From: a virus
Lineage: Duplodnaviria; Caudoviricetes
Reading direction: 5' to 3' (one strand)
Virus record (IMG/VR): IMGVR_UViG_3300028805_000101
Location: 1 to 64,000 of that record
Length of the DNA stretch: 64,000 nucleotides
Of the stretch, positions 6,371-43,823 are shown piece by piece; within the stretch, counting starts at the first letter, position 1, and each line of letters starts with the position of its first letter. A program made the position numbers and the translations under genes. Under the pieces are notes generated by a model, which made no database searches, was not told the origin of the DNA, and saw only the letters and a list, made by a program, of their open reading frames with translations.

Positions 6371-6989
6371 TTAATTCTCCTGATATATTTACGAGTTCTT
6401 TATAGTTTGCTGGTCTATACCAAGCTTCCCAACAAACATTGTTTTGCTTCATTTTACATGTAGGAGCAAAATCTACAATAGAAATCTTATTTTCTTCATG
6501 AGTATGACCATGAACTAGAACATTCATACTATAATCTGTATCATTTACCTTCAATACAGGATTAGTCAATTTGACTTCATTAAAATCATTATGCTGACAA
6601 ATATAATGTCTGTTGCGATAATCAAACACAAAACCATCAGCCCATAATATATTATCTTTTGTAACTTTTGAAAGAATGTGGTCATGATTTCCACGTATGA
6701 AATGTTTTTCGCCATTTAGATTATCCACAACCATATAAAAATATTCAGGAACATCTTTAACCTTTGTACTCATTACAAAATCACCCATGAAAATCACTAC
6801 ATCATCTTTCTTGATGGTTTCATTCCACTTAAAAACAATGTCGGAATTCATTTCATCTACAGTAGCATATTTTCTACATCTTTCAAAATGTTCAGGACAA
6901 CTCGTCACCAATTTCCGATGATTGAAATGTGTATCAGACACAAACCATAGATTCTTATGTTCATCAATGTTTAAAGTTTCAAAATTCAT
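6363..6989 (-). CDS. calcineurin-like metallophosphoesterase
   Basis: DTH, GD, GNHD, H, HGHTH motifs. Confidence 0.9.
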   Translation of the reverse strand: MNFETLNIDEHKNLWFVSDTHFNHRKLVTSCPEHFERCRKYATVDEMNSDIVFKWNETIKKDDVVIFMGDFVMSTKVKDVPEYFYMVVDNLNGEKHFIRGNHDHILSKVTKDNILWADGFVFDYRNRHYICQHNDFNEVKLTNPVLKVNDTDYSMNVLVHGHTHEENKISIVDFAPTCKMKQNNVCWEAWYRPANYKELVNISGELNG

Positions 6990-14132: not shown

Positions 14133-14281
14133 TAGTAAACCTTAAAATTCTGATCATCGCAATTATATGTGGTAGAGTCAGTTTCCATTACCTTACAATT
14201 TTCTACTGGTGCATTTGATATTCTGGAATCATTACACGATATTATACAGAATACTGCAATTATTATTAAATACTTAACCAT
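14132..14281 (-). CDS. 49-aa putative lipoprotein (not in ORF track)
   Basis: MVKYLIIIAVFCIISC lipobox-like N-terminus. Confidence 0.55.
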   Translation of the reverse strand: MVKYLIIIAVFCIISCNDSRISNAPVENCKVMETDSTTYNCDDQNFKVY

Positions 14282-14777
14282 TTTTATTACCTAATTCTTC
14301 AGCGATCTTATCCATTATTCCGTTCTGTATTGCATCCTGTAGTTTCAATGAAATGTATTTGCTAAATGACATTCCTGCTTTATTTGCTGCTAGTTGTAAT
14401 TGTGCAATTTCTTCATCAGTCAAATCAAGACAGATTTCTTCCATACCATCTTCAATCAACTTAACTCCTGTTGGTTCTAACCATCTACGAGCAACTTCAT
14501 TTTCAATCTGACAACCTTTAGAATCTTTCCAACCTGGGGCAAAATAGATTATTTCAGCACCAGCCATTTTTGATAATGCTTGACCTAACAAATTTACAGC
14601 ACTAATGGCATTGTATTCAGTAGTTTCTTGTGGCTGATATGAATCAATTACAACAATTTCATTATCAGGATAAACATTAGAAATATAATCAGCAGCTTTT
14701 CTTCTTGTTTCTAAAATTTCATCGTTAGTCAATCCACTCATTGGTTGTGAAATAAATACTCTCTTAATCGGCTTCAT
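14274..14777 (-). CDS. DUF4406 (nucleoside deoxyribosyltransferase-like) domain fused to an RHH-like tail
   Basis: VFISQPMSG...IYFAPGWKDSKGCQIENEVA; C-terminal DLTDEEIAQLQLAANKAGMSFSKYI. Confidence 0.7.
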   Translation of the reverse strand: MKPIKRVFISQPMSGLTNDEILETRRKAADYISNVYPDNEIVVIDSYQPQETTEYNAISAVNLLGQALSKMAGAEIIYFAPGWKDSKGCQIENEVARRWLEPTGVKLIEDGMEEICLDLTDEEIAQLQLAANKAGMSFSKYISLKLQDAIQNGIMDKIAEELGNKNG

Positions 14778-15073: not shown

Positions 15074-15304
15074 TCAAAACCTACCGGACTTTTTTAGTTC
15101 TTTCAGAAATGCATCATATTGTTTAGCAAAATATTCAAATGTATTATCTTCATCTACAGGACCAACTGTTTGTAAATTCATGTCTTTACAGAACTTTTCC
15201 CATTCTTCATCAGAACAAACTTGTTCCTGGTCATCTATATAAGATTTCATCCATTCATTCATCGCTTCAGACGGCGTTTTCCACATTTGGTTCTTCTCCT
15301 TCAA
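15074..15304 (-). CDS. hypothetical protein
   Basis: ORF track. Confidence 0.55.
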   Translation of the reverse strand: MKEKNQMWKTPSEAMNEWMKSYIDDQEQVCSDEEWEKFCKDMNLQTVGPVDEDNTFEYFAKQYDAFLKELKKSGRF

Positions 15305-16064
15305 AAATTACATTTTCACGATTAGTCACTTTGGAGAATATAGGCATATCCAAAATACGGATTTCATGTCTCTTCACCATAGTATTTCTATCTAAAGTAA
15401 ATCTATGTTTTTCAGGAATCTTATGCCATTCTTCATCATTCAATTTTCGTTCAATGATTTTTCGCTGAGCATATGTTCCACGCTTGAAAAATACTGGATA
15501 ATCATTCCAGTTAATACCTTTTTCCATTAACAAGTCTTGTTTTTCTGCACCATTCTTATTCATTAGTTGTTTGTCTGAATAATATGCTCTTGCTGCCATA
15601 GAAATAGAATTCTTTGTAGCATCAAATTCTCTCCATAGCAATTCATTTGCGGCTTCAGTCCTATTTGGAACTTGCCAACATCTACAATCAAAAAATGCCA
15701 ATGGCTTATCAGGATATTTCTTATGAATGACTTCGTTGAACTTAGCTGTAGCAATACTCGCTATAACTGAAGTCAGTTTAGAAATTCTACCATTGAACAT
15801 CGGATCTTTTATATCAGATAGAATTAGTGTTATTTCATCAGACTGTGTATATCCAATACAAGCATCACTTTGTTCCACAAGATATCGCATTGTTTCAACC
15901 ATTGAGTCTGACATATCCTTGTCATAGGGGCGTTTCATTCCTCTAGTGAATGTGTGGAACGCCCTTCCATCAATACGAACGCAGATTGGAAGTCTTGGCA
16001 TAAAGCTGCGATTTGCTTCAATGCCTTCATATAATTTCATTCTATCACCAAATTTATCTGCCAT
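15267..16064 (-). CDS. thg1: tRNA(His) guanylyltransferase / Thg1-like 3'-5' polymerase
   Basis: RIDGRAFHTFT, QSDEITL, FNGRISKL, FDCR, KNSIS, GINWNDYP..FKRG; start re-called at MADKF. Confidence 0.93.
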   Translation of the reverse strand: MADKFGDRMKLYEGIEANRSFMPRLPICVRIDGRAFHTFTRGMKRPYDKDMSDSMVETMRYLVEQSDACIGYTQSDEITLILSDIKDPMFNGRISKLTSVIASIATAKFNEVIHKKYPDKPLAFFDCRCWQVPNRTEAANELLWREFDATKNSISMAARAYYSDKQLMNKNGAEKQDLLMEKGINWNDYPVFFKRGTYAQRKIIERKLNDEEWHKIPEKHRFTLDRNTMVKRHEIRILDMPIFSKVTNRENVIFEGEEPNVENAV

Positions 16065-16155
16065 TTTTATACCATAATTAAAAGAATTTCCACACAATGA
16101 AACTCATTACAAATAAAGCTAATCCTAGCCAAAACATAACTTTATTAACCATCAT

Positions 16156-22467: not shown

Positions 22468-23217
22468 TTATGTATTTATTTCAACATTAAATTTCACACA
22501 GTCTGTATATTTTAATTTACCGCCAAATATATCAAGTGCTGAACCAATGGTTAAATCTATCTTACCTTTTGATATTTCATTCACCAAATATAAGTCAGAA
22601 ATATCTCTAGCACCGCCTGCATAAGTAGTCTTTATTGGACTATATTCTGATAAGAACTTTATAAGTTCAATATCCATACCATTCTGTTTTCCTTCTACAT
22701 CGCAAGCATGTATAAGAAATTCATCGCAGTAATGAGATAGTATGTTCAATAATTCAGGTGTTAGTATGATATTGCTTTTATCTTTCCAATATTTCAACAA
22801 TATATTTCTATCTGAATTACAACTTAAATCTATTACTATATGTTCTTTTCCAATCTTACTTGATATAAGTATCAAATCACTCAAATCAAATTTACCATTT
22901 GGAAATAATAGACTTGTTATGATTACATGACTGGCACCAGCATTTATATATTCTTCAGCATTGTCTAATGTAATTCCACCACCAATCTGTAAAGCATTTG
23001 GATATGATTCAAGCGCAGCTTTCGCCACGCTCGAATTTTCTCCACCCAACATAATTATATGTCCACCAGTTAGTCTGTCTTTCTTATATAGATTGGCATA
23101 CCATACAGGTGATTTATCAGTTTCAAAATTGACCTCGGTCTTGCTAGATAATGTAGAACCAACAATCTGTTTTACTTTACCATTATGGAGATCTATGCAA
23201 GGCCGAAATATAGTCAT
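22468..23217 (-). CDS. hisA: ProFAR isomerase (HisA), His6/eukaryote-like subfamily
   Basis: FRPCIDLHNGKVKQIVG, GGHIIMLG, LQIGGGIT, GASHVI, EFLIHACDVEG, TYAGG, DLTIGSALDIFGG. Confidence 0.92.
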   Translation of the reverse strand: MTIFRPCIDLHNGKVKQIVGSTLSSKTEVNFETDKSPVWYANLYKKDRLTGGHIIMLGGENSSVAKAALESYPNALQIGGGITLDNAEEYINAGASHVIITSLLFPNGKFDLSDLILISSKIGKEHIVIDLSCNSDRNILLKYWKDKSNIILTPELLNILSHYCDEFLIHACDVEGKQNGMDIELIKFLSEYSPIKTTYAGGARDISDLYLVNEISKGKIDLTIGSALDIFGGKLKYTDCVKFNVEINT

Positions 23218-28312: not shown

Positions 28313-29077
28313 TTATAATGCACCGGCATTATCAAGTTCATGGATATAGTTAGGTAAAAGTGGATTAGTCGGTTCAAATGCAGGAACACGAATCATTTCT
28401 GTTTTAAACTTATTGGCTTTGTATTTTCCAATAATCAAGTCATAATTAGGTCCCTTGATACCTTTACGAATAAGGTCATTGATTTCCTTGTATGTGCAAC
28501 CAATACCATCTTCATCAGTCTTTCCACACAATCCATCGCTTGGAGTCTTATGAACCAAATCATAAGGAAGACCAAGGTCATCACCAATTGCACAAACTTC
28601 TTCAGTTGTCAATCTAGACAATGGACTAAAGTCTCCAGCACTATCACCATAGATAGTTGCCCAGCCAACAGTGTCTTCAGATAGATTACATGTATTTGCC
28701 ACACGGCCACCAATGTTCTGTGCCACACCATATAGAACAGTCATTCTCAGACGAGGCGGCATGTTCATTTCTGCCTGACTACTAATATTTTTTTCATTGA
28801 TCTGATTTACGAGATTATAGTAAGCATACTGAATATTAACCACCAATCCCTTAATGCCAAGATAATCAATGATTTTTTCAGAATCCTTAATGTCGCTTTG
28901 AACACCATTGGGCATCATTACGCCAATTACATTTTCTTTTCCAAGTGCCTGAACACAAAGACCAGCAACAACAGTGGAATCCTTACCACCACTAATGCCA
29001 ATTACAGCCTTCCGTCCATTAGTTTCCTTGAAATACTTTTTAATCCATTCAATGCAGTCAGTTGTGAGTTTATTCAT
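28313..29077 (-). CDS. nadE: NH3-dependent NAD+ synthetase
   Basis: GISGGKDST PP-loop, N..PRLRMTVLY, NLSE..VGWAT.YGD, PSDGL...TDE. Confidence 0.95.
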   Translation of the reverse strand: MNKLTTDCIEWIKKYFKETNGRKAVIGISGGKDSTVVAGLCVQALGKENVIGVMMPNGVQSDIKDSEKIIDYLGIKGLVVNIQYAYYNLVNQINEKNISSQAEMNMPPRLRMTVLYGVAQNIGGRVANTCNLSEDTVGWATIYGDSAGDFSPLSRLTTEEVCAIGDDLGLPYDLVHKTPSDGLCGKTDEDGIGCTYKEINDLIRKGIKGPNYDLIIGKYKANKFKTEMIRVPAFEPTNPLLPNYIHELDNAGAL

Positions 29078-29087
29078 TTTGTTTCCT

Positions 29088-29231
29088 TTATGCCAGATAA
29101 GCGAATACTAATCCACCATTCAATGATGCCAGTATAATCATCAAAATTGTCATCCATTTTGGTACATTATCTTTAGTAATGATTGCGGTTAGAGCACTGA
29201 AAATTCCCGCGAAGACATTTAGACTAACCAT
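29088..29231 (-). CDS. 47-aa 2-TM peptide between pncA and nadE (not in ORF track)
   Basis: manual translation MVSLNVFAGIFSALTAIITKDNVPKWMTILMIILASLNGGLVFAYLA. Confidence 0.55.
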   Translation of the reverse strand: MVSLNVFAGIFSALTAIITKDNVPKWMTILMIILASLNGGLVFAYLA

Positions 29232-29763
29232 TAATTACCTCAATTTGTTGCATCTTGAGAATATACTTGACAGACTCTCGGCACTGAGTTTCATCACCAT
29301 TTTCATCAGCCATAAATCCACAACCAGCAAAGTCCATAGTGACCTTCTTGTTAGGATAGCAAGCACGAAGAATTACAGCCTGAGCAAATGGACAAATTGG
29401 ATTTACCGTGCCATAAATTACAAATTCATCAATGTCTTCAGCAAGTCCAAAAATTTCCTTCCATTCAATGTAACCAAAAGTTTCCTTTTCTACAATGATA
29501 GGTGTCTTCGTACAAGCATCAAGCAACACCTTAGCAATTTCAAAACCAGATGTACCTTCAATGCAATGTGGTACAGGTAAATTCTTACCTTCAAATGTTT
29601 CCAAGTAATTGCTATAATGCTTATCCTTGGTGAAAACTACCGGACGTTCAGCATTCTTAATACGATTTGCCACATATCCAAGTTTCTTTTCAAAATTAGG
29701 ATTAGGAAGTGCACCATTGATGAAGTCAATCTGACCATCTACACAAATTTCTTGTTTAGCCAT
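29224..29763 (-). CDS. pncA: nicotinamidase (isochorismatase/cysteine hydrolase family)
   Basis: VDGQIDF (catalytic D), TKDKH and PHC (metal ligands), EKETFG (K), PICP (C). Confidence 0.88.
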   Translation of the reverse strand: MAKQEICVDGQIDFINGALPNPNFEKKLGYVANRIKNAERPVVFTKDKHYSNYLETFEGKNLPVPHCIEGTSGFEIAKVLLDACTKTPIIVEKETFGYIEWKEIFGLAEDIDEFVIYGTVNPICPFAQAVILRACYPNKKVTMDFAGCGFMADENGDETQCRESVKYILKMQQIEVING

Positions 29764-29788
29764 TTTTATCTCCTTATGAAATTGTTAG

Positions 29789-30337
29789 TTAATAAAGTGT
29801 AATGTCCTTATAGAACTGATTGTTAAGTTTTACTGCTTCATCATATTCCATCTTAGCCTTTTTGGTACGATTACGAAGTTTGAATGCAGGAACACTAGAT
29901 TTTACCCATTCAGGCTTATACATGAAAAATTCAAGATTTGGAAATCTTTCATTCATTTCCTTAATGCGGCGTTTCACGATAGCACGATCTTCCTTTCGGA
30001 CAAGTGCAACACCAGTATTTTCTGCAAGATTCCAATCAACATCATAATGGATATGTCTCCATTCAATACTATGGCATCCTTCAACCTTATGTGGTTTTGC
30101 ACCAATAATTACACCAGGCATTCTTTGTTCAATGATTTCTGGGTGTTTCTTGATAAAGGTTTCGTATTGTTGCCTTGTTGCTTGTTCAACAATATATCTT
30201 GGTTCATCAATACCAATGTTATAGCCTTCAGCCAATGTTCTATTGATAGAACGATAATTTACAAGAGTCTTCTTCACATATCTTGCCTGTTCTGGAAAGA
30301 CAATTAGACATTCAGGATATTTACGTTCATCGCACAT
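29789..30337 (-). CDS. hypothetical basic protein
   Basis: ORF track. Confidence 0.65.
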   Translation of the reverse strand: MCDERKYPECLIVFPEQARYVKKTLVNYRSINRTLAEGYNIGIDEPRYIVEQATRQQYETFIKKHPEIIEQRMPGVIIGAKPHKVEGCHSIEWRHIHYDVDWNLAENTGVALVRKEDRAIVKRRIKEMNERFPNLEFFMYKPEWVKSSVPAFKLRNRTKKAKMEYDEAVKLNNQFYKDITLY

Positions 30338-30426
30338 TTTAACTCCTTTTGTTATTTGTTTTAATAAATTTAGTATTTCACATACTTTGTGTCAATTCAA
30401 CATTTGTAATATTTTCATTACATTAG

Positions 30427-32253
30427 TTAAATCCAAGGATTTTTAATGACTTCTACTATTCCATTAGCATCAGTAATGGTAGTATCTCCAATTTCATAAT
30501 TATCACCACCAAACTGTGTTTCAATAGCATTATTTACATTATCATTAAACATTCTATCCATAACAAGTTCTTCTTCAATTCTAGAAGATTCATAAGCATC
30601 CTTCAATTCCTGGTAATCATCATCAGTCAATGTCACATTGACAGTGCAAAGGATTTTCTTCTTACCATTATCAAGTTGTTCATTGTCTAGGATTTCAATA
30701 GAAGCATTAATATTACCACTAGGCTGCGCAGTACTTGCACCAGAATTAGCAGTTGCACTATTGTTAGTAGTTGCATTTGTATTTGTAGAAGAACCATTCG
30801 GCGTTGCAGTACTGCCATTATTAGATACTACATCAACCTGACCAAATGTTTCAATCTTGGCATCTTCATAAACCATGAGAAGACCAATGATTTTAGCATC
30901 GCTCTGCCAATTTCTAGTGAACTTAGTATTGACTGCCCAGACAATTCGTTCAGGATATTCAGGTTCTTCTGTTCCAATGACATTCTTCAATTCGTCAATT
31001 TCAGATGGCATCAAATCTACCTGAACAATCCTCTTATATCTCTTATCATTTGTTTCCAGCACAAGCGTTGTATGTACAAAAGTTTCTTCAAGCGACCCTG
31101 CAGGCTTACCACCAAACTTCGGATCGTTAGTTTGGGCCTTCGTAAAAATATTGTCAAATACCTTATCAGCAGTCGGATTGTTAGAAATTTCCAAACCAAC
31201 ACCAGCAATTATCTTATCGCTACTGGCAATATGGATCTTTCCTTCATAAATGTTTCCACCACCAACATCAATCTGAATGGTGAAACCACGATAACCAACA
31301 TTCTTCGGATATTTCTTCGCATCAACAAGACCCTTGAAACCAACCTGGGCATTGGCATTGAACTTCTTCATAGTGGAGTTCTTGTATTCACGCTTGATAG
31401 ACAAGTTGTATTTTCCACTAAGGACCTTGCTATGTGCAATCGTATATTCAATCCACTGCTTAAGATAGTCAGTGTTAATCTTTTCATCACCGGTCAACGG
31501 AGCAACATTTTCAGGTTCTGTAGAATTGGTTGTTGTCGCAGGTGTAGCCGTTGCCGTTGCAGCATTTGTGGTTGTTGCAGTCTTCTTTGTCTTCTTCTTT
31601 GCGGTAGCCTTCTTTACCTTCTTCACAACAGCACCAGCAACAGTATTCAAATCCAAAATCTGCATAGCCATATATTCATCAATATCCTTGGAATTTGTCA
31701 GTGCAAATTCATGTGTTTCGTTGCTAGAATGTTGGGTAATATCATTTACAGCCAATTCATTCACAAAACGCTTCTTCATATTGCGAACAGCACTAGCAAA
31801 CATCAAATCGGTATTTGACTGTGCCGAAACAAAATCATTGAAGAATGCATAGTTGCTATAATCGGTCTTCATTACAGTCTTCATCATACCATCAATATCA
31901 TAGCCCAGCGGGAATACGAAATACTTGGCATCATCAGGAACTTCAACAATGAAGGAAACCTTGTCGCTGAAGAAATGGTCATTATGCCATTCCGAATGAA
32001 GTTCATCTTTATCATTGAATGTATCATTCAGAACATCAGAGAACCAGGTATAAACATCTGGTGTTTCAGCACCTTCCACAATGAGTGATACTTTAAACGG
32101 GTCATCACTAACAGATGCATGTTTCTTTTCGTCAGGATTCAGATTGTTATAGATATATTCGGCGATGTATTTTTTCGCCTCATCATGAGTTTCATGGAGC
32201 TTGGAGTCAATGATTTGGTGAGCACCATGAGTGATAGTCAAAAATTTTGCCAT
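30427..32253 (-). CDS. 608-aa multidomain hypothetical protein with Lys/Ala/Thr-rich linkers
   Basis: long ORF behind consensus promoter. Confidence 0.8.
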   Translation of the reverse strand: MAKFLTITHGAHQIIDSKLHETHDEAKKYIAEYIYNNLNPDEKKHASVSDDPFKVSLIVEGAETPDVYTWFSDVLNDTFNDKDELHSEWHNDHFFSDKVSFIVEVPDDAKYFVFPLGYDIDGMMKTVMKTDYSNYAFFNDFVSAQSNTDLMFASAVRNMKKRFVNELAVNDITQHSSNETHEFALTNSKDIDEYMAMQILDLNTVAGAVVKKVKKATAKKKTKKTATTTNAATATATPATTTNSTEPENVAPLTGDEKINTDYLKQWIEYTIAHSKVLSGKYNLSIKREYKNSTMKKFNANAQVGFKGLVDAKKYPKNVGYRGFTIQIDVGGGNIYEGKIHIASSDKIIAGVGLEISNNPTADKVFDNIFTKAQTNDPKFGGKPAGSLEETFVHTTLVLETNDKRYKRIVQVDLMPSEIDELKNVIGTEEPEYPERIVWAVNTKFTRNWQSDAKIIGLLMVYEDAKIETFGQVDVVSNNGSTATPNGSSTNTNATTNNSATANSGASTAQPSGNINASIEILDNEQLDNGKKKILCTVNVTLTDDDYQELKDAYESSRIEEELVMDRMFNDNVNNAIETQFGGDNYEIGDTTITDANGIVEVIKNPWI

Positions 32254-32284
32254 AGTTATTCCTTTTGTTGAATTTCTAAGTTTA

Positions 32285-32313
32285 AATATAGAAAATTATT
32301 TATGTTCTGTCAA
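32285..32313 (-). promoter_or_regulatory. early promoter TTGACA-N17-TATATT-TAAACTTAG
   Basis: consensus; TTTACAT 19 nt upstream. Confidence 0.8.
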
Positions 32314-32346
32314 TTTGATTATGAATGAACTTATGTAAATTTTTTG

Positions 32347-32631
32347 TTACATGAAGTCCTTATTCATCTTCATTTTCCTAAGATCAATCTCATGTTGCTT
32401 TAAATGTAGTTGATATTCAGTATATTTTTCAAGAAATAATTTTTCAGTAACATTATCCAAATCCATATAATCTCTATCAAATATAAAGAAAAATCTATCT
32501 GTATCTGTACTATAAACAAATAAATTTCTCTTTATGCCATTTTTGTCAGCGGTTACTGCATATAATGATGGTAATTCAATTGTATATAGACCAAGCTGTT
32601 TAGAATAGTCTAAAATTTCTTGTATAGTCAT
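32347..32631 (-). CDS. DF-tail family small protein
   Basis: C-terminus RKMKMNKDFM. Confidence 0.65.
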   Translation of the reverse strand: MTIQEILDYSKQLGLYTIELPSLYAVTADKNGIKRNLFVYSTDTDRFFFIFDRDYMDLDNVTEKLFLEKYTEYQLHLKQHEIDLRKMKMNKDFM

Positions 32632-32957
32632 TTAAAGTCACCATTAACATCTTCAATCTTATTTTCTATTTCAAACTGTTTATCCAATAGGATAAATTTG
32701 TTTATTTTGTCTTTGGCTTTATCATAGTCATAATACGAATCTGAACCCCAGAAAAGACTTTTCTTGCAATCTATACCTGAAGCAATAAGACACATGTTCT
32801 CATTACATCTATATTGCATTAGAAAGCCTGCATAGTTTTTATACTTAACATTTATCCACTGGTCATTATTAACCGGATGAGTCTTAAATCCAAATTCATT
32901 AACCAATGTATAAAATATTTCTTTCGGATCCATTAGTCTTCTCTCTTCTTCAGCCAA
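32628..32957 (-). CDS. DF-tail family small protein
   Basis: C-terminus KIEDVNGDFK. Confidence 0.65.
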   Translation of the reverse strand: MAEEERRLMDPKEIFYTLVNEFGFKTHPVNNDQWINVKYKNYAGFLMQYRCNENMCLIASGIDCKKSLFWGSDSYYDYDKAKDKINKFILLDKQFEIENKIEDVNGDFK

Positions 32958-33994
32958 TCATCAATAATCTTAGCATGGTGAAAACCAAGTTTAGGCAAAT
33001 TATCCAAGTCAAACCAACGAGCCTCGGCAGCATCATCACTACCAATAGCTTTATTCATTAGTTTCTTTGGAACACGAACCGCAAATGCTGTATCTACTAT
33101 CTTCATTCTAGGGTCAAAATTGTGTCCATAAGTCTTAATTTGGATAAACTTATTCGGTTCCAAATCCAATCCTGTTTCTTCACGAAATTCTCTTGCTGCA
33201 CCATAGTTTAAGTCTTCATCTGTCTTTTCAAAAAATCCCCCTGGAGTACACCAATAATTCTTATATGGGAAATTACCACGGCGAATTAGAAGCACCTGAT
33301 TTCCATTGTATGCCACGATGTCAGTAGTAACGCTAGGTTCACTCCATCCATTCTTTTTCTTCTTTATCGCATAGTCAGCAAGAAATTTCTTTTCTTCATT
33401 TTCATAGTCATTACCATTTTGCCAATACAGTTCATTGTCTTTAATGTATCGGAATGTTTGATGAGCAATAAAGGACTTAACATCATCATAATGGCAATCA
33501 GGATTTCTAGAAAGAATATCTCGCACAGCACTAGAACTAATAAGTTTACTATTGTCAATGTTCACAACAATAGCATCATATTTCTTCGTATCAATGTCAG
33601 AATGTTCTCTACCAACAATCATAAACTTAAATTGCTTAAGAATCAGATCATAATTTACCCATTTGCCAGCAAGCAATGACTTCCATTCATCTTCACCTAT
33701 GCAGATTATTATATCTTTAGCAGTAATTCCTTGCATTTTCGTGTAATCAGATAGGAACTTATATGTACGATGATTTTGTGAAAATATCTGATAACTATTC
33801 TTAATCTTTTCTGCCACGATTTTCTGAACCATGTTCATTCTATCAGTGAATGAACACTTATAATTCTTTTCATCATTATTCGCAACACCAATAATAAGTG
33901 AATCAGACTTATTCATAGTTTCACGAATAGTCTTCAAAATATCAATATGAGCATTAGTTACTGGGTCAAAACTTCCGCCATAAAAATAAATCAT
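32933..33994 (-). CDS. nadD: bifunctional NadD-type nicotinate/nicotinamide-nucleotide adenylyltransferase + Nudix (ADP-ribose pyrophosphatase-like)
   Basis: YGGSFDPVTNAH and ISSSAVR; C-terminal PSVTTDIV...LLIRR...PGGF...AREFREETG, DPR, GSDDA..A.WF. Confidence 0.9.
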   Translation of the reverse strand: MIYFYGGSFDPVTNAHIDILKTIRETMNKSDSLIIGVANNDEKNYKCSFTDRMNMVQKIVAEKIKNSYQIFSQNHRTYKFLSDYTKMQGITAKDIIICIGEDEWKSLLAGKWVNYDLILKQFKFMIVGREHSDIDTKKYDAIVVNIDNSKLISSSAVRDILSRNPDCHYDDVKSFIAHQTFRYIKDNELYWQNGNDYENEEKKFLADYAIKKKKNGWSEPSVTTDIVAYNGNQVLLIRRGNFPYKNYWCTPGGFFEKTDEDLNYGAAREFREETGLDLEPNKFIQIKTYGHNFDPRMKIVDTAFAVRVPKKLMNKAIGSDDAAEARWFDLDNLPKLGFHHAKIIDDWLKKRED

Positions 33995-34438
33995 TTAATT
34001 TCCTCCAGGTCCTTTATGTTGAGGCTGTTCTTGAAATGCTTGTTGCTTGGTTGCTTTCATCCAATTGTCAATAGCGGCCAAAATATCCTTTTCATTTGGA
34101 CTATATCCCCAAGTTTCACCTCGTTCATCAAAAGCGTAATATGTGTCTCGGTTAAGATTAGCGGATGTAGTGTAGTTTTCAATTCGGATATATCGCATTG
34201 GATAAGGTCTTCCAGTCTTTATTCCGACAATCCGACCATCCTTCGTAATAATTTGTTCTTGCTTATTGTCAAGAATTTGTTCAAGTGTCTGTTCCTGTTT
34301 TGGTTCTTCATTTTGAACATGTTTTTCATTTACATAGTCATTCCAGTTTGGTGTTTCCATTGTTACTCCATAGTTATTGTTATTTTCCTTACCTTGGCAT
34401 CTGTCAAATCCATTTTTATAGACCAACTTTCCTGCCAA
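33995..34438 (-). CDS. hypothetical protein
   Basis: ORF track. Confidence 0.55.
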   Translation of the reverse strand: MAGKLVYKNGFDRCQGKENNNNYGVTMETPNWNDYVNEKHVQNEEPKQEQTLEQILDNKQEQIITKDGRIVGIKTGRPYPMRYIRIENYTTSANLNRDTYYAFDERGETWGYSPNEKDILAAIDNWMKATKQQAFQEQPQHKGPGGN

Positions 34439-34587
34439 TTTTTTAAAGTTCTTTCTGCAACATTGCGGTCAGTAAATCCAGCCGATGAAAAAATATTATC
34501 AGTCAATTTCAATCCAAAATGAGTTTCTGTAATATAACGAATTACTCCATCTATGGTTTTTGTTATGATATAATATTCTTTTTTCAT
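34363..34587 (-). CDS. hypothetical protein
   Basis: start re-called at MKKEYY after GAGG SD. Confidence 0.55.
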   Translation of the reverse strand: MKKEYYIITKTIDGVIRYITETHFGLKLTDNIFSSAGFTDRNVAERTLKNWQESWSIKMDLTDAKVRKITITME

Positions 34588-34603
34588 TGATACCTCTAAT
34601 ATA

Positions 34604-34632
34604 AATATATAAAAAATTGCACATTCTGTCAA
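34604..34632 (-). promoter_or_regulatory. early promoter TTGACA-N17-TATATT
   Basis: consensus; TTTACAT 18 nt upstream. Confidence 0.75.
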
Positions 34633-34670
34633 TGTGCAATAAGTTAATACATGTAAAAAATTTTTAACAA

Positions 34671-35102
34671 TTAGTCAAAATCACTAAGGAAATTGTTTTT
34701 ACTTATCTTGGTATTTTTTGCTTTTAGATAAATGTTGTATTCCTTAATTCTCTTCAGAATATTTTCGTTCTTGACTATGATTATTGTTTTATAACCTTTA
34801 TCCTTATGAGTAATTTCATAACCTTTGGAACACTTCATAATTACGAATGGATAGTTAGGATGCTTCCACTCATGGTTATTGAATGACCAGCCATTACCAG
34901 TTAGAATTTCATTTCCTTTCTCATAAAATGAATCATTGTTCAAATATGATTTTAATTGTCTAGCGGCCTCTGATGCCGCCAATTCACTCATTAACTTTCG
35001 TTTCTTTTTGTCTTCAACATAACCTTTTTCATAAGGAGAAAAGAACTTCTTTATGCTGTTAATTTTTTGTTCTAACCAATTACAAAATTTGTCATATGAC
35101 AT
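34671..35102 (-). CDS. DF-tail family protein
   Basis: C-terminus SKNNFLSDFD. Confidence 0.6.
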   Translation of the reverse strand: MSYDKFCNWLEQKINSIKKFFSPYEKGYVEDKKKRKLMSELAASEAARQLKSYLNNDSFYEKGNEILTGNGWSFNNHEWKHPNYPFVIMKCSKGYEITHKDKGYKTIIIVKNENILKRIKEYNIYLKAKNTKISKNNFLSDFD

Positions 35103-35116
35103 TGTTTTTTTACTCC

Positions 35117-35569
35117 TTAGATTAATCCTTGTTCATAATGTTCAATACATTCTTTAACTATTGGGCCTAATGACCTATAAAACATATTCGTATCATTTAC
35201 CCAATGGTACTTAATGACTTCAGGCACATTATTACCAAATCTATTTTCAAACATTGAATTGCATTTTAGAGCTGTAATATCAATATCATCAACAATTAAG
35301 TATAAATGCAAATCCTTCTTCGGAATATATTGGAAAATTCCACAATCATGTATTTTTTGGTCAGTAATTCTTAAACCGGTTTCTTCATATAGTTCACGAA
35401 TTGCCGCTTCTAAGTGTGTTTCGCCATTTTCTACATGACCTTTAGGAATATCACAATTATATTCTTTAAACGATCTGCCATATGCCTGACAAGCCAAAAT
35501 TTGACTTTCATCATTCTTATTCAATATGACAAATCCACAACTAATTTCTTTCATATTACAAATATACAA
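35117..35569 (-). CDS. Nudix hydrolase
   Basis: PKGHVENGETHLEAAIRELYEETGL canonical Nudix box. Confidence 0.92.
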   Translation of the reverse strand: MYICNMKEISCGFVILNKNDESQILACQAYGRSFKEYNCDIPKGHVENGETHLEAAIRELYEETGLRITDQKIHDCGIFQYIPKKDLHLYLIVDDIDITALKCNSMFENRFGNNVPEVIKYHWVNDTNMFYRSLGPIVKECIEHYEQGLI

Positions 35570-35926
35570 TTATTTCTGCATAGTGTCAACTGTGAAATCT
35601 AAAGCAATCTCACATTCTCTAATACATTGTGCAAATTTTTTCCTATATTTCTCAATTAAAGCATCTTCCTTTATACTGGGCGGCAATCTATATCTACTAA
35701 GTTCATAGTCAAATTCTCTATCAAGGTCTGTAATTTTTTTAGCAATCTTTGCATATTTAAATTCATTGACCTTTATATTTCTAAAATTATCATACACCAT
35801 CAAACTTGAAATATAGTTGTATAGCAACTTTATTCTTATAGCTGGATCTGCACCAGCAGAATCAATAAAATCCTGTTTTTGTTTTTTGACTATGTAGGCA
35901 TATTTTTCTAGTTTAAAATCACTCAT
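35570..35926 (-). CDS. hypothetical protein
   Basis: ORF track. Confidence 0.6.
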   Translation of the reverse strand: MSDFKLEKYAYIVKKQKQDFIDSAGADPAIRIKLLYNYISSLMVYDNFRNIKVNEFKYAKIAKKITDLDREFDYELSRYRLPPSIKEDALIEKYRKKFAQCIRECEIALDFTVDTMQK

Positions 35927-36318
35927 AATGTATATTTTATAGTAAATTTTTTCGCCAAAATTTCACTTGTTTTAATGATATAACTATCTGCACAGCCTCT
36001 CGGATTTTCCATAAATGAACCAGTAATCTTAAAAGAATCTAACAATAAATCAAAGGCTTGTTGAACAATATCATCAAACATTTCTTTGTTAGACCAGAAC
36101 ATATAGAATGGAAAATTGTTTTTATCTAAAGACCAAGTTATTGCTCTAACAATCAAATCACCTCGTTCCCAACACATTCTAGCTCGCCAAGCATTTTTTT
36201 GGTCATACAAAAAAATTGCTATTTCAGTCTTTACTTCTTTTAACAATCTATAACGAAATTCATCGTCTGCTGTGCGATAATCCATCATAATCTTTACACC
36301 CGGTCCTTTATATTTCAT
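35923..36318 (-). CDS. hypothetical protein
   Basis: ORF track. Confidence 0.6.
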   Translation of the reverse strand: MKYKGPGVKIMMDYRTADDEFRYRLLKEVKTEIAIFLYDQKNAWRARMCWERGDLIVRAITWSLDKNNFPFYMFWSNKEMFDDIVQQAFDLLLDSFKITGSFMENPRGCADSYIIKTSEILAKKFTIKYTL

Positions 36319-36323
36319 AAAAT

Positions 36324-36351
36324 AAAAAAGGCGGTCATATTTCAGACCGCC
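36324..36351 (-). terminator. intrinsic terminator GGCGGTC-TGAAATAT-GACCGCC-TTTTTT
   Basis: 7-bp stem plus U tract directly after pncB. Confidence 0.85.
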
Positions 36352-36360
36352 ATTATTTTG

Positions 36361-37743
36361 TTAGACAGCCATTGGTGTGTAAATATCCTTTAACCATACA
36401 TCCTGGAATGCAGGTAGAATCTGGACAATTTCACTAACCAACATATCATCAATGGACTTATAGTCATAGACCTGACGAACATAGTTATTATATTCCTCAT
36501 TCTGACATAGAGTTTTACCATTACTATCGCTGAGTTTCGTGACAGGTTTTCCATTGACTTCAACAACCTTCATAACCATAGACAGAGGTTTCTTCTTTGT
36601 ACCACAGATAGTAGCACCAAGATATGTACCAATGCCAAACGAAACCTTGATACGATTATTGAAGTGCTTAGCAATAGCCAAGGCCTTATTAATATCCAGC
36701 GAATCAGACCAACATCCAACCTTGGTTCTTGGGTCAATGCCAATCTTCTTGTAGTATGCAATCAGCATTTCACCCCAACGAATCGGGTCACCAGAATCAT
36801 GACGGCATCCATCAAAGAGCTTTGCAAATTTCAAACCAAAGTCATTCAAGAAACTCTTGAAACCAAAGTTGTCGCTCAATGCAATACCAAGCGAACCATC
36901 ATATTCAGTAGACCAGTCTTCCATGACCTTCTTCTGTGCCATAGCAACAGGAACATCAGCAAGACCCTGATATGTTGCATAGAGTTCATGTGCGAAGGTT
37001 CCAATTGGCTTACATTTATGCTTCCAAGCAAGATAAACATTGGATGTTCCAACAAAGGCAGGACACATGGCAGTCATACGACCGACCATATAATCTTCCC
37101 ATTCACTAGAAATAGTACGGCGAACAGAGAAGTCTGCAATCGTGAAATTGATGCCAGCACGAGTTGCCGCATTAATCTTAGCAATTTCCTTATCCAATGC
37201 ATCGCTAGCCTTTTCAAAATCAATCTTTTCATCAGCCATCCAAAGTGCCTGAATGATATGAAGAACATAGATTTCAAACGGAGAAACATTTTTCTGTGGA
37301 CCTTCGGCTTCAACAAACAATGTAGTATTCTTCTTATCAGAATACACCTTGATGTATCTACGCTTTAACTGGAAATCTTCAAGGAATTCAATGTAGTCCT
37401 TCTTGAACCACGAGAATGAAGCCATATAATCCAATTCAAATTGCTGGAATCGTAGTGTGCAAATCCAATCAAGTTCTTCGTTGATACGATTGATGAACTT
37501 AGTGAGATTTACTCCCTTTGTTCTACACTTAAATTCCCATTTAGCCTGTTCATTTGGGCGGCGATGAAAATAGAACTGTTGCTGAGAGAACTTATACAAG
37601 TCCGTTTCAGTTAGGAAATTGATAATATGCTTATGAGCATAAAAATCTGCACCATCTTGTACCTTTAGGCGTGTTGGTTGCTTTGCCTTTTCAGGCTTCT
37701 TTGTGGGAGTTTTCTTTGTTGTATTTTTCTTTTTACTAGACAT
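36361..37743 (-). CDS. pncB: nicotinate phosphoribosyltransferase
   Basis: ETDLYKF, DFSVRR, GTSNV, GTFAHE (phospho-His), RHDSGDP, SFGIGT, KLSD. Confidence 0.95.
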   Translation of the reverse strand: MSSKKKNTTKKTPTKKPEKAKQPTRLKVQDGADFYAHKHIINFLTETDLYKFSQQQFYFHRRPNEQAKWEFKCRTKGVNLTKFINRINEELDWICTLRFQQFELDYMASFSWFKKDYIEFLEDFQLKRRYIKVYSDKKNTTLFVEAEGPQKNVSPFEIYVLHIIQALWMADEKIDFEKASDALDKEIAKINAATRAGINFTIADFSVRRTISSEWEDYMVGRMTAMCPAFVGTSNVYLAWKHKCKPIGTFAHELYATYQGLADVPVAMAQKKVMEDWSTEYDGSLGIALSDNFGFKSFLNDFGLKFAKLFDGCRHDSGDPIRWGEMLIAYYKKIGIDPRTKVGCWSDSLDINKALAIAKHFNNRIKVSFGIGTYLGATICGTKKKPLSMVMKVVEVNGKPVTKLSDSNGKTLCQNEEYNNYVRQVYDYKSIDDMLVSEIVQILPAFQDVWLKDIYTPMAV

Positions 37744-37776
37744 AGTATATAACCTCTCAGTTTTATTATTTTAATA

Positions 37777-38457
37777 TTAACAAAGATCCTTCAAAATGTC
37801 AATGTTTTTTTGAAAAATAACTTTCATTTTATCTAAATGTAAATGTTTTTCATTGCTTAGCTGTTTAATTTGTTCTTTCAATAGATTAATTTCTTGTTCT
37901 TTAGCTTTAATAATATCACTATATTCAATAATTCCTTTATTATGAATTAACTTATTAAACTGGTCTATATTGTCCTTACTGGCATTAAAAGCCTTTTTAA
38001 TTGCTTTAACCAAAGAATCAATGTTTGTGACTTCAAAGTCAATAGGAACATTTGTCATATTAAAATATTTCGCAGTAAATTTATCAAAATAAACTTCTTT
38101 ACTGCCAAGTATACTATAAAATATGTTAAAATCTATCTTATCAAATAAAAGTCTATTATAATTAAGATTAGTCAAATGGACAACCTTATCACTCATTGTC
38201 TTATCAAATACAGCCGAACAATATATCATATTACACTTATCATTAATATATGATACATCCATAAAATCATTATCTACATTAAAGAATTTTATAGGAAAAG
38301 ACAATTTGATAGTAGTATTAGAACATTCCACAATATTCACTGGTACACTATTGACTTTTAAAGGTAAAACATCTTTACATTTTTCCTTGAAAATTTTGCC
38401 AATTCTATGTAAATATTCTCGGTCATTTGCTGTAATATTATCTATTGTCTTTGTCAT
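37777..38457 (-). CDS. hypothetical protein
   Basis: ORF track. Confidence 0.6.
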   Translation of the reverse strand: MTKTIDNITANDREYLHRIGKIFKEKCKDVLPLKVNSVPVNIVECSNTTIKLSFPIKFFNVDNDFMDVSYINDKCNMIYCSAVFDKTMSDKVVHLTNLNYNRLLFDKIDFNIFYSILGSKEVYFDKFTAKYFNMTNVPIDFEVTNIDSLVKAIKKAFNASKDNIDQFNKLIHNKGIIEYSDIIKAKEQEINLLKEQIKQLSNEKHLHLDKMKVIFQKNIDILKDLC

Positions 38458-39075: not shown

Positions 39076-39915
39076 TTATACTCCGCACATCTTCACGAAA
39101 TCGTCTTCAGAAATAAGAGTAATTCCCTGTTTACGGGCCTTTACGGCCTTAGACGAAGTAGAATTTGGGTCAGCAAGAACCAAGAACTCAGTGTCCTTCT
39201 TAATTCCTTCGTGAATTACACCACCATTCTTTTCAACCATAGACCACAGTTCCTTACGAGGACGAGATGCCGCACCAGTGAAACAGAACGATTTTCCAGC
39301 AAGAACACCATTGGTATTAACAGTTTTCTTTTCCGGTTCCTTGATAGTTACGAATGTCAATGTCTTTTCCATATCTTCACGCAGTGCTTGCAATCCCTGG
39401 GCGAGTTTCTTGGAGATAATAGAACCAACACCATCGCAAACAAAACGCTCAGGAGATTCAGCATATGCGAAGAAATCATTGAAGGTCTGGAAATTCTTTT
39501 CCTTGATGATGTTGTCAATTACCTTTTCGCCAACTCCTTCAATGTTGTACCCAGCAATAAACTTCGCCAGTGACATTTCCTTGTGAGTATCAAGTTCCTT
39601 TTTCATCTTCATTGCAGAACGCTTTCCCAGACCAGAAATGGAAGCAATCTTATCCAAATCCATAGTGTAAAGCGAAGAAATCGTGTCAATCACCCCATTG
39701 TCAATTAGTGTTTCAATCGTAGTCAGACCAAATTCCTTAGCACCGATGGTGTTAGTCCATTTTCCAATTCTACCAGAAAATTTACTCTTGCAAAATTCAT
39801 TCACACATCGCAGTTGGCAATGATTGTCAGATAGTGTGAGCTCGCCACCACATACCGGACATACCGTAGGAAGATTCCATTTGTGAGAAGTGGCAAGTGT
39901 CTGAATAATATTCAT
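39076..39915 (-). CDS. ligA: NAD-dependent DNA ligase, C-terminal half (Zn finger, HhH, BRCT)
   Basis: PTVCPVCG...C..EFC; HhH GLGKRSA, NIEGVGE; BRCT GKSFCFTG...ITLISEDDF. Confidence 0.9.
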   Translation of the reverse strand: MNIIQTLATSHKWNLPTVCPVCGGELTLSDNHCQLRCVNEFCKSKFSGRIGKWTNTIGAKEFGLTTIETLIDNGVIDTISSLYTMDLDKIASISGLGKRSAMKMKKELDTHKEMSLAKFIAGYNIEGVGEKVIDNIIKEKNFQTFNDFFAYAESPERFVCDGVGSIISKKLAQGLQALREDMEKTLTFVTIKEPEKKTVNTNGVLAGKSFCFTGAASRPRKELWSMVEKNGGVIHEGIKKDTEFLVLADPNSTSSKAVKARKQGITLISEDDFVKMCGV

Positions 39916-40008: not shown

Positions 40009-40827
40009 TTACAAAGCCATCAGTGAATCATAAGAATGTACACCAGAATTTCGTCTAATCTTATGCATAATTTGTTTCTTTAGCGAAGCTAGTCTTTGAT
40101 GTGATAGACCATGTTCTACAGCAAGGTCAACTATTGTTGTTGGCTCGTTTTCGCCTATACCATAATGTTTCAATACGATATTTCTATCTCGTTCAGACAG
40201 ATCCTTCATTATGGTATCAATCTTCTTCATTATGTCATTATTTTCAATATCATTTTTAAATGAATTATCTTCAACAACATCAATAAGTTCAGTTGTTTCA
40301 TTATCCAATCCTGGAACAGGTGTATTAAGTGATTCAATGTTCACCGCATTATCAACCAATACAAAATCAAGAATTTTTTGATTAGACAAACCAAGTTCAT
40401 CAATAGTCTTATGTTCTTTATTCATTCGTTTAATAATCTTATTAGCTTCCTGTCTTTGATTGATTGGAATATAAATTGCTGAAGTATACGAATCTAGATA
40501 TTTCTTAATTCGCTGAACAATGTACCAGACAGCATAACTAATGAATTTCGTACCATCATTAACATCATATTTAGTGGCAGCATATTTCATACCAAGAATG
40601 CCTTCTTGAATTAGATCTGTCAATTCTACGGATTTATTAGCGAACTGCTTTGCTACTGATACTACAAATAATATATGGTTTTGAACAATCTTATTCATTG
40701 CCATGTTCTTGATTGTTTTTGAAACCTTATCAGATTGAATAATGTTGAAATATGCTTTTTCTTCATTAACCGATAGTTTACAATTTGTCTCTAGTGCATT
40801 TTTCAAAAATGGTTGCAGTTCTTTCAT
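40009..40827 (-). CDS. sigma70-family RNA polymerase sigma factor (regions 2-4)
   Basis: FVVSVAKQF, DLIQEGILG, KFISYAVWYI, SLNTPV, LSERDRNIVLKHYGI. Confidence 0.92.
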   Translation of the reverse strand: MKELQPFLKNALETNCKLSVNEEKAYFNIIQSDKVSKTIKNMAMNKIVQNHILFVVSVAKQFANKSVELTDLIQEGILGMKYAATKYDVNDGTKFISYAVWYIVQRIKKYLDSYTSAIYIPINQRQEANKIIKRMNKEHKTIDELGLSNQKILDFVLVDNAVNIESLNTPVPGLDNETTELIDVVEDNSFKNDIENNDIMKKIDTIMKDLSERDRNIVLKHYGIGENEPTTIVDLAVEHGLSHQRLASLKKQIMHKIRRNSGVHSYDSLMAL

Positions 40828-42713: not shown

Positions 42714-43823
42714 TTAAAGTTCATAACCTTCGGCATACTTACCAGTGTTGACATCCTTGATAATCTTAGGAATAATCATACCACAGCGGCAAATGATAAC
42801 CTTATGACCAATTTCAATTCCCATATTTTCCAAGCAAGCGACATTGCAGAGGTTTGCCTTCTTGACAGTGGCACCCTGAAGGTCTACAGGCTCAACAATA
42901 CCTACCGGCGTAAGATTGCCATTACGAACCTGCCAGACAATGTCAATCAGAGTGGTTTCCTTGAGAATCTTGGCAGGCTTCAATGCAATGTTAGTCTTCG
43001 GACGGACATTGGTTCGCATATCATTCATATCAATGGCATTCTGTTTCCAGACGATACCATCAATATCATACTCAAGATCGTCAAACTTTGCAAACACATC
43101 ATTGAGATATTCCATACATTCCTTAGAAGTAAGGTTCTTGAACATCTTGTAAGGAGCAACCTTAAAACCATTTCGTTCAATAAATTCAATGAGGGTTTTC
43201 TGAGTACCAAAAGATTCAGAATGGTCAAGATACTGAGCATCATAACAAACAACATCCAGATGTTCACAACCAGCACCATCAAGACGCTTCATAATGCCAG
43301 TCGCAGTATTACGGCAATTCTTCATTTCAGGATAAAATTTGTTTTTGTTGGCACGAGACAGAAGAACTTCACCACGAACATCGCCAGTGAAATTATCATT
43401 GAGTCGCATCGGCACGAAATTCATTTTTTTCACATTTTCCGTAATATCATAACCCGTTTTACCATCACCACGAGTAGCAGCCTTAACAAAATTTCCATTC
43501 ACATAAGTCATACAGAGTGAAGCACCATCCATCTTATAAGAACCAAGTACAAATGAATTATCAATGGTAGACAACCAAGCATTCATTTCAGGTTCCGTGT
43601 TGGCTTTGTTTTGGCTACCCATAACAATGTTATGCTTCACCTGCTTAAAACCAACAGCAGTGTCAGCACCAACCAAGGTTGTCAACAATGCATTATTCGG
43701 ATCAAGAACAGCGAGTTCATCAACCAATGCATCAAACTCAGCATCAGAAATCTTCGGTTTATCATTGTAATAGAGTTCCTGATTGGTTTTGATTTCGTTT
43801 TCAAGGATTTCAATTCGTGTCAT
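42714..43823 (-). CDS. ligA: NAD-dependent DNA ligase, N-terminal half (Ia, adenylation and OB domains)
   Basis: YYNDKPKISDAEFDAL, H...MGSQNK, KMDG, TRGDGKTG.DIT.N, VRGEV, DIDGIV.K, ATV..A.LCN, IPKI. Confidence 0.93.
   Translation of the reverse strand: MTRIEILENEIKTNQELYYNDKPKISDAEFDALVDELAVLDPNNALLTTLVGADTAVGFKQVKHNIVMGSQNKANTEPEMNAWLSTIDNSFVLGSYKMDGASLCMTYVNGNFVKAATRGDGKTGYDITENVKKMNFVPMRLNDNFTGDVRGEVLLSRANKNKFYPEMKNCRNTATGIMKRLDGAGCEHLDVVCYDAQYLDHSESFGTQKTLIEFIERNGFKVAPYKMFKNLTSKECMEYLNDVFAKFDDLEYDIDGIVWKQNAIDMNDMRTNVRPKTNIALKPAKILKETTLIDIVWQVRNGNLTPVGIVEPVDLQGATVKKANLCNVACLENMGIEIGHKVIICRCGMIIPKIIKDVNTGKYAEGYEL

Follow-up and report, generated by a model that had tools for sequence, protein, structure and literature searches.

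Depletion of nicotinamide adenine dinucleotide (NAD+) is among the commonest modes of bacterial antiviral immunity, and the phage counter-pathways that have been shown experimentally, NARP1 to NARP3, all keep the amide group of the nicotinamide. NARP1 (Adps and Namat) and NARP2 (Nampt and Nmnat) were described by Osterman et al. (10.1101/2024.02.11.579819), where nicotinate, PncA and NadE are unmentioned, and NARP3 comprises PnuC and NadR (PMC13464706). A bioinformatic study published in Microbiome in 2024 ('Gastrointestinal jumbo phages possess independent synthesis and utilization systems of NAD+'; PMC11662467) reported 174 'NAD-jumbo phages' in which a salvage or Preiss-Handler pathway is complete, named a pncB-nadD-nadE cluster (Kuafu_71) and mentioned phage pncA. 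Our literature search found no published link between a phage nicotinamidase, or a deamidating route, and counter-defence. Here we analyse a 64,000-nucleotide stretch of DNA ('the window'), which is the first 64 kb of the 72,368-bp IMG/VR virus record IMGVR_UViG_3300028805_000101 (CheckV completeness 18%). A 9.4-kb region of the window holds genes for a nicotinamidase (PncA), a nicotinate phosphoribosyltransferase (PncB), a NadD-like adenylyltransferase fused to a Nudix hydrolase (NadD-Nudix) and an NAD+ synthetase (NadE). Together these likely form a deamidating (Preiss-Handler-type) salvage pathway, encoded by the phage, through which nicotinamide or nicotinate is turned into NAD+ in the infected cell.

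In the proposed pathway, PncA would convert nicotinamide to nicotinate and NH3, and PncB would combine nicotinate with host phosphoribosyl pyrophosphate (PRPP), with ATP, to give nicotinate mononucleotide (NaMN). The NadD-like domain would then use ATP to turn NaMN into nicotinate adenine dinucleotide (NaAD), which NadE would convert to NAD+ using ATP and free ammonia. The fused Nudix domain would most likely cleave ADP-ribose to AMP and ribose-5-phosphate. The benefit to the phage would be that NAD+ is kept available during infection, including in the face of SIR2- and TIR-type defences that split NAD+ into nicotinamide and ADP-ribose. The substrates, the order of the last two steps, the timing of expression and any anti-defence effect are what we infer from the genes and their surroundings.

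Identity of the four predicted enzymes

PncB scores 434.2 bits against NF003704 (cut-off 379) and 355.7 bits against TIGR01514 (cut-off 269.55), models whose curated equivalog/subfamily cut-offs separate PncB-type nicotinate phosphoribosyltransferases (NAPRTases) from nicotinamide phosphoribosyltransferase (NAMPT). The protein comprises the Pfam domains NAPRTase and NAPRTase_N, and its matches in the PDB are all NAPRTases (six of six), the best being P. aeruginosa 1YIR (E 5e-75). Residues 248-253 read GTFAHE and align to GTMAHE in 1YIR; we take the His of this GTxAHE motif to be the residue that is autophosphorylated in Salmonella PncB. NAMPT was considered as another identity for this protein and was ruled out, as the scores exceed the NAPRTase cut-offs and every solved relative is a NAPRTase. 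A Lys-rich, low-complexity extension (approximately residues 1-36) precedes the NAPRTase_N domain. In near relatives PncB is likewise long (467-472 aa), and in distant ones it has about 425 aa.

NadE is well above the cut-off of TIGR00552 (155 bits, cut-off 63.65), scores 169 bits against Pfam NAD_synthase and has the PP-loop SGGKDS at residues 29-34. It is a single-domain protein in which the glutaminase domain is absent, and single-domain NadE enzymes work with free ammonia (PMC3376133). The best solved relative is the archaeal-type P. horikoshii enzyme 2E18 (E 2.8e-34, 121.7 bits), and the second is Francisella 3FIU (90.9 bits). A first-pass annotation, made from the sequence alone, had called these two proteins a nicotinate phosphoribosyltransferase and an NH3-dependent NAD+ synthetase, and both calls stand.

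The PncA protein is divergent. A family profile built from 19 homologs matches the P. horikoshii nicotinamidase 1ILW with an E value of 2.3e-16, and the next matches are yeast Pnc1, the PncA proteins of S. mutans, A. baumannii and M. tuberculosis, and the S. pneumoniae enzyme. Most relatives of the protein have a precomputed match to the Pfam family Isochorismatase (PF00857). The AlphaFold2 (AF2) model has a predicted local distance difference test score (pLDDT) of 96.1, and its top Foldseek match is again 1ilw (template modelling (TM) score 0.73), followed by many nicotinamidases. A catalytic triad of D9, K93 and C124 is invariant across the 19 homologs and aligns with the equivalent positions of 1ILW and 3EEF. 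The metal site, D47, H49 and H66 (the last within PHCIEGT), is likewise invariant across these homologs, and the region around it aligns with the DWH...RHCVQNT segment of P. horikoshii PncA. Such an Asp-x-His ... His metal site is the feature that separates nicotinamidases from other isochorismatase-like hydrolases. From the profile match, the modelled fold and the invariant residues we accept the protein as a predicted nicotinamidase, as the first-pass annotation had read it, albeit one with a Pfam score below the cut-off, to which we return below.

Mosaicism is seen among pncA alleles. The PncA of the window is 93% identical to the proteins of two related loci (L002 and L003) and 66% identical to that of a third (L001). 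The other module proteins show the opposite pattern: PncB, NadE and NadD-Nudix are 61-74% identical to their counterparts in L002 and L003, and the other L001 genes are at 90-96%. Because the PncA identities run opposite to those of the rest of the module, the alignments suggest a recent recombinational exchange of a pncA cassette between diverged phages.

The adenylyltransferase half of NadD-Nudix finds its best full-length hidden Markov model (HMM) match in NadD (TIGR00482, 83.5 bits), which it covers from position 1 to 194 of 194. Its best single-domain structural matches are the NadD structures 3dv2, 8aii, 9fyb, 1kaq and 5llt (TMt 0.72-0.80), and the whole-chain AF2 model (pLDDT 78.6) gives the NadM-Nudix proteins 2qjt and 2qjo as top Foldseek matches (E ~1e-14). 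The domain carries the motifs GGSFDPVTNAH (residues 6-16) and ISSSAVR (152-158), and G6, D10, P11, A15, H16, S153 and R158 are invariant across relatives. In the Nudix half, the Nudix box spans residues 252-276 with an invariant REFREETGL core (REx2EE) and one extra residue in the G-to-E spacer, and a DPR motif lies at residues 294-296. The best solved relatives of this half are 2fml, 3gz8 (NrtR with ADP-ribose) and 2qjo. NadM-Nudix models (PRK05379) match chiefly residues 143-335, that is, the Nudix side, and a NadM-type N-terminal domain is not recognised by them. Phosphopantetheine adenylyltransferase (PPAT) was also considered for the N-terminal domain and ruled out, as PPAT models cover residues 4-67 only, the region of the TNAH motif, and no PPAT is found among the top Foldseek matches of the adenylyltransferase-Nudix model. 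The HMM and fold comparisons therefore uphold the earlier description of a NadD-type adenylyltransferase joined to an ADP-ribose-type Nudix, rather than a NadM-type protein. That the NadD-like domain would prefer NaMN to nicotinamide mononucleotide (NMN) is suggested by one observation, its constant partnership with PncB and NadE.

Co-occurrence and arrangement of the genes in related phages

To judge the setting of these genes, the phage itself has to be considered. The record has a GC content of approximately 30%, nearly all genes in the window lie on the minus strand, and phage markers include a T4-type neck protein, a Laminin_G tail-fibre-like protein, GroEL, a sigma-70 factor and TnpB. 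An identical NadD-Nudix protein is encoded on a 299,761-bp contig, and a relative at 96% identity on contigs of up to 367 kb; these contigs point to the record being a fragment of a jumbo phage with a genome larger than 200 kb. A megablast search of the 9.4-kb region against GenBank phages gave no match, which leaves the phage without a close relative in culture. The samples of its near relatives carry the study tags STEW19 and TONG22, which we take to denote ruminant gut studies.

ENA assemblies and IMG/VR supplied 20 related loci, and in 17 of them all four genes lie within +/-10 kb. Two of the exceptions are a 5-kb fragment (L007) and a locus in a 22-kb record of 6% completeness (L012). The third (L011) belongs to a 165-kb record (G004) that does contain PncA, PncB and NadE, 14-22 kb further along. 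We see, in short, that the four genes are co-present in every related record of sufficient length, down to 37-44% identity, with catalytic and metal-binding residues intact and invariant. The arrangement itself varies. Members of the near clade resemble the window: the genes occupy about 9 kb, with small genes of unknown function among them. In the distant loci L016, L017, L019 and L020 (NadD-Nudix 37-44% identical) the four form one contiguous operon of about 3.7 kb. That the set persists across such deep divergence and in differing gene orders strongly supports joint action of the four genes. The first-pass annotation had proposed a co-occurrence survey of this kind and an HMM check of each enzyme. 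The survey bears out the grouping, and in the HMM check PncB and NadE exceed their curated cut-offs and the assignments of PncA and the NadD-like domain are held by profile, fold and conserved residues.

The NadD-Nudix protein was also searched for in 185,579 prokaryote species genomes. Only seven matches were obtained, all on phage-like contigs of metagenome-assembled genomes (MAGs), and no cellular genome with the fusion was found in this set. The longer of the seven contigs carry the same four-gene module. Their taxonomic labels are inconsistent and give no clue to host or donor: the MAG labels of module homologs (P0011; L027-L033) comprise Methanobrevibacter, Clostridia, Succinivibrionaceae, Traorella, Rickettsiales and Bacilli, and one of the contigs is 266 kb long. 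These homologs are almost certainly mis-binned jumbo-phage contigs. The Methanobrevibacter label of P0011 is most likely a case of mis-binning, since the phage has a sigma-70 factor and sigma-70-like promoters. Among other large phages, megaphage LR756501 has pncB and nadE adjacent, yet no PncA or NadD-Nudix homolog was found within 15 kb. In the cultured 490-kb Agrobacterium phage Atu_ph07 (L026, 177824-203032), a nicotinate phosphoribosyltransferase gene lies about 3 kb from one for an ADP-ribose pyrophosphatase. This phage also encodes a hypothetical protein whose similarity to PncA is weak (E 5e-4), and has Thg1 nearby, as in the window.

The promoters, terminator and Shine-Dalgarno sites reported here are pattern matches only. 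Sigma-70-like promoters were found upstream of pncB and at the head of two further units, and a terminator-like hairpin directly follows pncB (Table 1); Shine-Dalgarno motifs precede all four genes. Since the genes sit behind host-type, sigma-70-like promoters, they are probably transcribed early by the host polymerase.

Table 1 Genes and expression signals of the NAD region and its surroundings, with coordinates in the window.
Feature	Position	Strand	Basis
PncB, nicotinate phosphoribosyltransferase, 460 aa	36361..37743	-	NCBIfam, Pfam and PDB matches
NadD-like adenylyltransferase fused to ADP-ribose-pyrophosphatase-type Nudix, 353 aa	32933..33994	-	Pfam CTP_transf_like + NUDIX
PncA, predicted nicotinamidase, divergent, 179 aa	29224..29763	-	Family profile, fold, invariant residues
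NadE, single-domain NH3-dependent NAD+ synthetase, 254 aa	28313..29077	-	TIGR00552, Pfam, PDB
Stand-alone Nudix hydrolase, T4 NudE(e.1)-like, 145 aa	35117..35554	-	Pfam NUDIX 51.7 bits; phrog_1185 96.5 bits
Sigma-70-like promoter TTGACA-17-TAATAT, 10/12 consensus, upstream of pncB	37774..37802	-	Consensus scan
Sigma-70-like promoter TTGACA-17-TATATT, 11/12 consensus, heads orf147 - nadD-Nudix	34604..34632	-	Consensus scan
Sigma-70-like promoter TTGACA-17-TAAATT, heads orf182 - pncA - nadE	30367..30395	-	Consensus scan
Terminator-like GC-rich hairpin, 7-bp stem (6 GC pairs), then T-run TTTTTTATTT, directly after pncB	36330..36351	-	Pattern match
NAD-dependent DNA ligase, first gene	42714..43823		
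NAD-dependent DNA ligase, second gene	39076..39915		
Sigma-70 factor	40009..40827		
PARG catalytic domain protein, microbial type	2927..3787		PF10021 117 bits
TnpB (OrfB_IS605 / Cas12f-like TNB), window left end	1122..2309	+	
Calcineurin-like phosphoesterase	6363..6989		
DUF4406 protein	14274..14777		
Thg1 tRNA-His guanylyltransferase	15267..16097		
HisA/HisF-family (His_biosynth) protein, directly downstream of GroEL	22468..23217		

The small stand-alone Nudix hydrolase, the second Nudix of the first-pass annotation, is confirmed as such and is about 30% identical to NudE of T-even phages, with a canonical Nudix box at residues 44-66. Its open reading frame (ORF) had been listed from a TTG at 35569. 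This TTG falls inside a promoter-like site, for which reason the ATG at 35554 is probably the true start; from there the protein equals its L001 and L002 counterparts in length. The gene lies between pncB and nadD-Nudix in the near clade only. Pfam and PHROG searches were uninformative for the neighbouring ORFs of 182, 608, 226, 206, 147, 143, 131 and 118 aa. The TnpB gene near the left end of the window is on the opposite strand, and a TnpB-like gene is also found in L001 (11851-13089), where it is inserted in the NAD region between nadD-Nudix and a 512-aa ORF. The phosphoesterase, DUF4406, Thg1 and HisA/HisF-family genes of Table 1 are likewise unusual cargo.

Possible roles of the pathway and alternative readings

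Two relatives are complete and carry the four-gene operon: G002 (215,686 bp, 99%) and G003 (259,448 bp, with terminal repeats, 100%). Neither the 72,368-bp record nor five relatives, these two among them, yielded a PRPP synthetase (Prs; PF13793). The absence of prs that had been noted for the window thus extends to the whole record, and because the gene is also absent from the two complete relatives, PRPP must come from the host. For the same reason the closed loop suggested by the first-pass annotation, in which ADP-ribose is returned through ribose-5-phosphate to PRPP, does not hold as drawn and would be host-assisted at best. The relatives have one PF04095 gene per record, which is PncB, and NAMPT is absent from them; PnuC (PF04973) was not found in the record (G000) or in four relatives, and the NMN deamidase CinA/PncC was sought and not found. 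With a single PF04095 gene, and without Prs, NAMPT or PnuC, the deamidating route is by gene content the only phage-encoded route to NAD+, and NARP1, NARP2 and NARP3 are all absent.

Instead of countering NADase immunity specifically, the pathway may be an auxiliary metabolic module that supplies NAD+ in general, both to the NAD consumers of the phage and to host metabolism while a long jumbo-phage infection lasts, and we regard this as a real, if tentative, possibility. The phage ligase lies just upstream of the module in the window and in the near clade, and the gene for the C-terminal half of the ligase is conserved 2-5 kb upstream of pncB in L001-L010. The NAD-dependent DNA ligase just upstream that the first-pass annotation had named is real, although it consists of two genes, 2.8 kb apart, one with the adenylation and OB domains and the other with the Zn-finger, HhH and BRCT domains. 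The sigma-70 factor gene and small ORFs lie between the two, and the same split layout is seen in L001 and L002. The PARG-like protein noted in the same annotation is also present, as it is in G004. The authors of the 2024 survey read their clusters in this way, as an independent system of NAD+ synthesis and utilisation (PMC11662467). Set against such a supply role are the two complete relatives, G002 and G003, in which neither an NAD-dependent ligase nor PARG was found and which nevertheless keep the four-gene operon. The module is therefore selected independently of ligase and PARG, and the idea that it exists to feed either of them is weakened. Furthermore, the mechanism of LigA releases NMN and not nicotinamide, and no NMN deamidase was found. 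The PncA that is always kept makes sense mainly with nicotinamide as input, a compound that NADases, ADP-ribosyltransferases and sirtuins release.

Counter-defence, on the other hand, could be the main selective reason for the module, and we put this forward as a plausible but tentative suggestion. Slightly more tentative is the fuller version, in which the module would be a fourth, deamidating NAD+ reconstitution pathway selected against NADase immunity, with the fused Nudix clearing or recycling ADP-ribose. If true, the defences countered would include Thoeris, DSR, SIR2-HerA, SEFIR and RES-type systems that spoil ADP-ribose for NARP1. The only inputs would be nicotinamide, host PRPP, ATP and ammonia, and the route would not depend on the form of the leftover ADP-ribose. 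It would also explain why the module is kept in complete phages that have no NAD-dependent ligase or PARG.

Several observations weigh against the pathway as we propose it. PncA scores 23.6 bits against PF00857, under the gathering cut-off of 27, and the NadD-like domain falls under the trusted cut-off of TIGR00482 (112.45) and has TxAH where HxGH would be expected. With four ATP-consuming steps and a need for host PRPP, the route compares poorly with NARP1 and NARP2 in speed and cost where NAD+ is depleted acutely. Finally, the position of Francisella 3FIU as the second relative of NadE is a point for a different order of the last two steps, in which NadE would act as an NMN synthetase (NaMN to NMN), the adenylyltransferase would convert NMN to NAD+, and NaAD would never be formed. 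The 3FIU enzyme is described as an NMN synthetase (PMC3376133), and elsewhere the adenylyltransferase-Nudix arrangement is known in the NadM-Nudix proteins 2qjt and 2qjo, which use NMN. However, the archaeal-type 2E18 is the closer relative by score, and for one archaeal single-domain NadE, NAD synthetase activity has been demonstrated, with no appreciable activity as an NMN synthetase (PMC3376133). In addition, the Francisella adaptation accompanies replacement of NadD by NadM (PMC3376133), whereas the N-terminal domain here is NadD-like by both HMM and fold. We consequently think the NMN order unlikely, and keep to the order through NaAD.

A still weaker alternative is that at least one protein has another function and the pathway is incomplete, for instance through another amidase, a PPAT or other nucleotidyltransferase, or a Nudix that acts as a regulator or NAD-cap hydrolase. 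The sub-threshold scores just given, the resemblance of the N-terminal 60 residues of the adenylyltransferase to the PPAT motif TNGH, and the presence of N-carbamoylsarcosine amidase and isochorismatase-like hydrolases in the Foldseek list for PncA all speak for it, but it is made very improbable by the invariant triad and nicotinamidase-type Asp-His-His metal site, by PncA profile matches dominated by nicotinamidases, by NadD models that extend over the whole 190-aa domain where PPAT models stop short, and by strict co-occurrence with PncB and NadE, including in tight operons.

Comparison with described NAD+ pathways

The closest described phages are the NAD-jumbo phages, and the gene-set observation is already known bioinformatically from that work (PMC11662467). 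As in those phages, the carrier is an uncultured gut jumbo phage, with its size above 200 kb deduced from related contigs, in which pncB, nadD and nadE lie close together. The present locus differs in that pncA is an invariant fourth member, that the adenylyltransferase is seen to belong to the NadD type and to be joined to an ADP-ribose-type Nudix, and that the genes of this clade are spread over 9.4 kb in separate promoter units and not in one operon. The frequent Shine-Dalgarno sites also fit poorly with Bacteroidota as hosts, the prediction made for the Kuafu clade.

Among the experimentally described systems, NARP2, exemplified by NadV/NatV of KVP40, is similar in starting from nicotinamide and PRPP and in having an adenylyltransferase-Nudix fusion, and it too would restore NAD+ after NADase attack. 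It is, however, an amidated, two-step route, whereas the pathway proposed here would have nicotinate, NaMN and NaAD as intermediates and depends on PncA and NadE. Moreover, the sole PF04095 protein is PncB and not NAMPT, and the N-terminal domain of the fusion is NadD-like and not NadM-like. NARP1 and NARP3 share with this locus the general principle of a phage-encoded rebuilding of NAD+, or import of its precursors, under NAD+ depletion. In contrast to NARP1, there is no Prs-like Adps (PF13793) and no second phosphoribosyltransferase here or in the two complete relatives, and in contrast to NARP3 there is no PnuC in any of these three. Since PncA and NadE are needed and free ammonia is used, a deamidating route would be biochemically distinct from all three.

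Outside phages, NadM-Nudix proteins (Synechocystis slr0787, 2qjo; Francisella 2qjt/2r5w) likewise combine an adenylyltransferase and an ADP-ribose pyrophosphatase as two domains. In the phage protein the N-terminal domain is closer to NadD, the Nudix box has one more residue, and the domain orientation is not superposable (root-mean-square deviation ~20 A). Cellular Preiss-Handler salvage (PncA-PncB-NadD-NadE, including NrtR-regulated operons) comprises the same four chemistries, and the phage Nudix is nearest to the NrtR type. The differences lie in the carrier, a lytic-type jumbo phage, and in the Nudix being fused to NadD and not to a winged-helix repressor domain.

The first-pass annotation had proposed that the phage uses a third route. 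A claim to novelty for it has to be given up, as phage Preiss-Handler clusters were published in 2024 (PMC11662467) and the name of a third pathway, NARP3, belongs to PnuC and NadR (PMC13464706). The practical novelty is limited, because these gene clusters have been catalogued since then. Within the literature searched, the constant presence of PncA, the NadD-type Nudix fusion and the independence from ligase and PARG are apparently unreported. The locus is thus a good, though not unique, candidate for a deamidating NAD+ reconstitution route to set beside the amidated NARP1-3, and its clade provides a clean test set, with an invariant four-gene module that in some relatives is a compact operon of about 3.7 kb, directly clonable.

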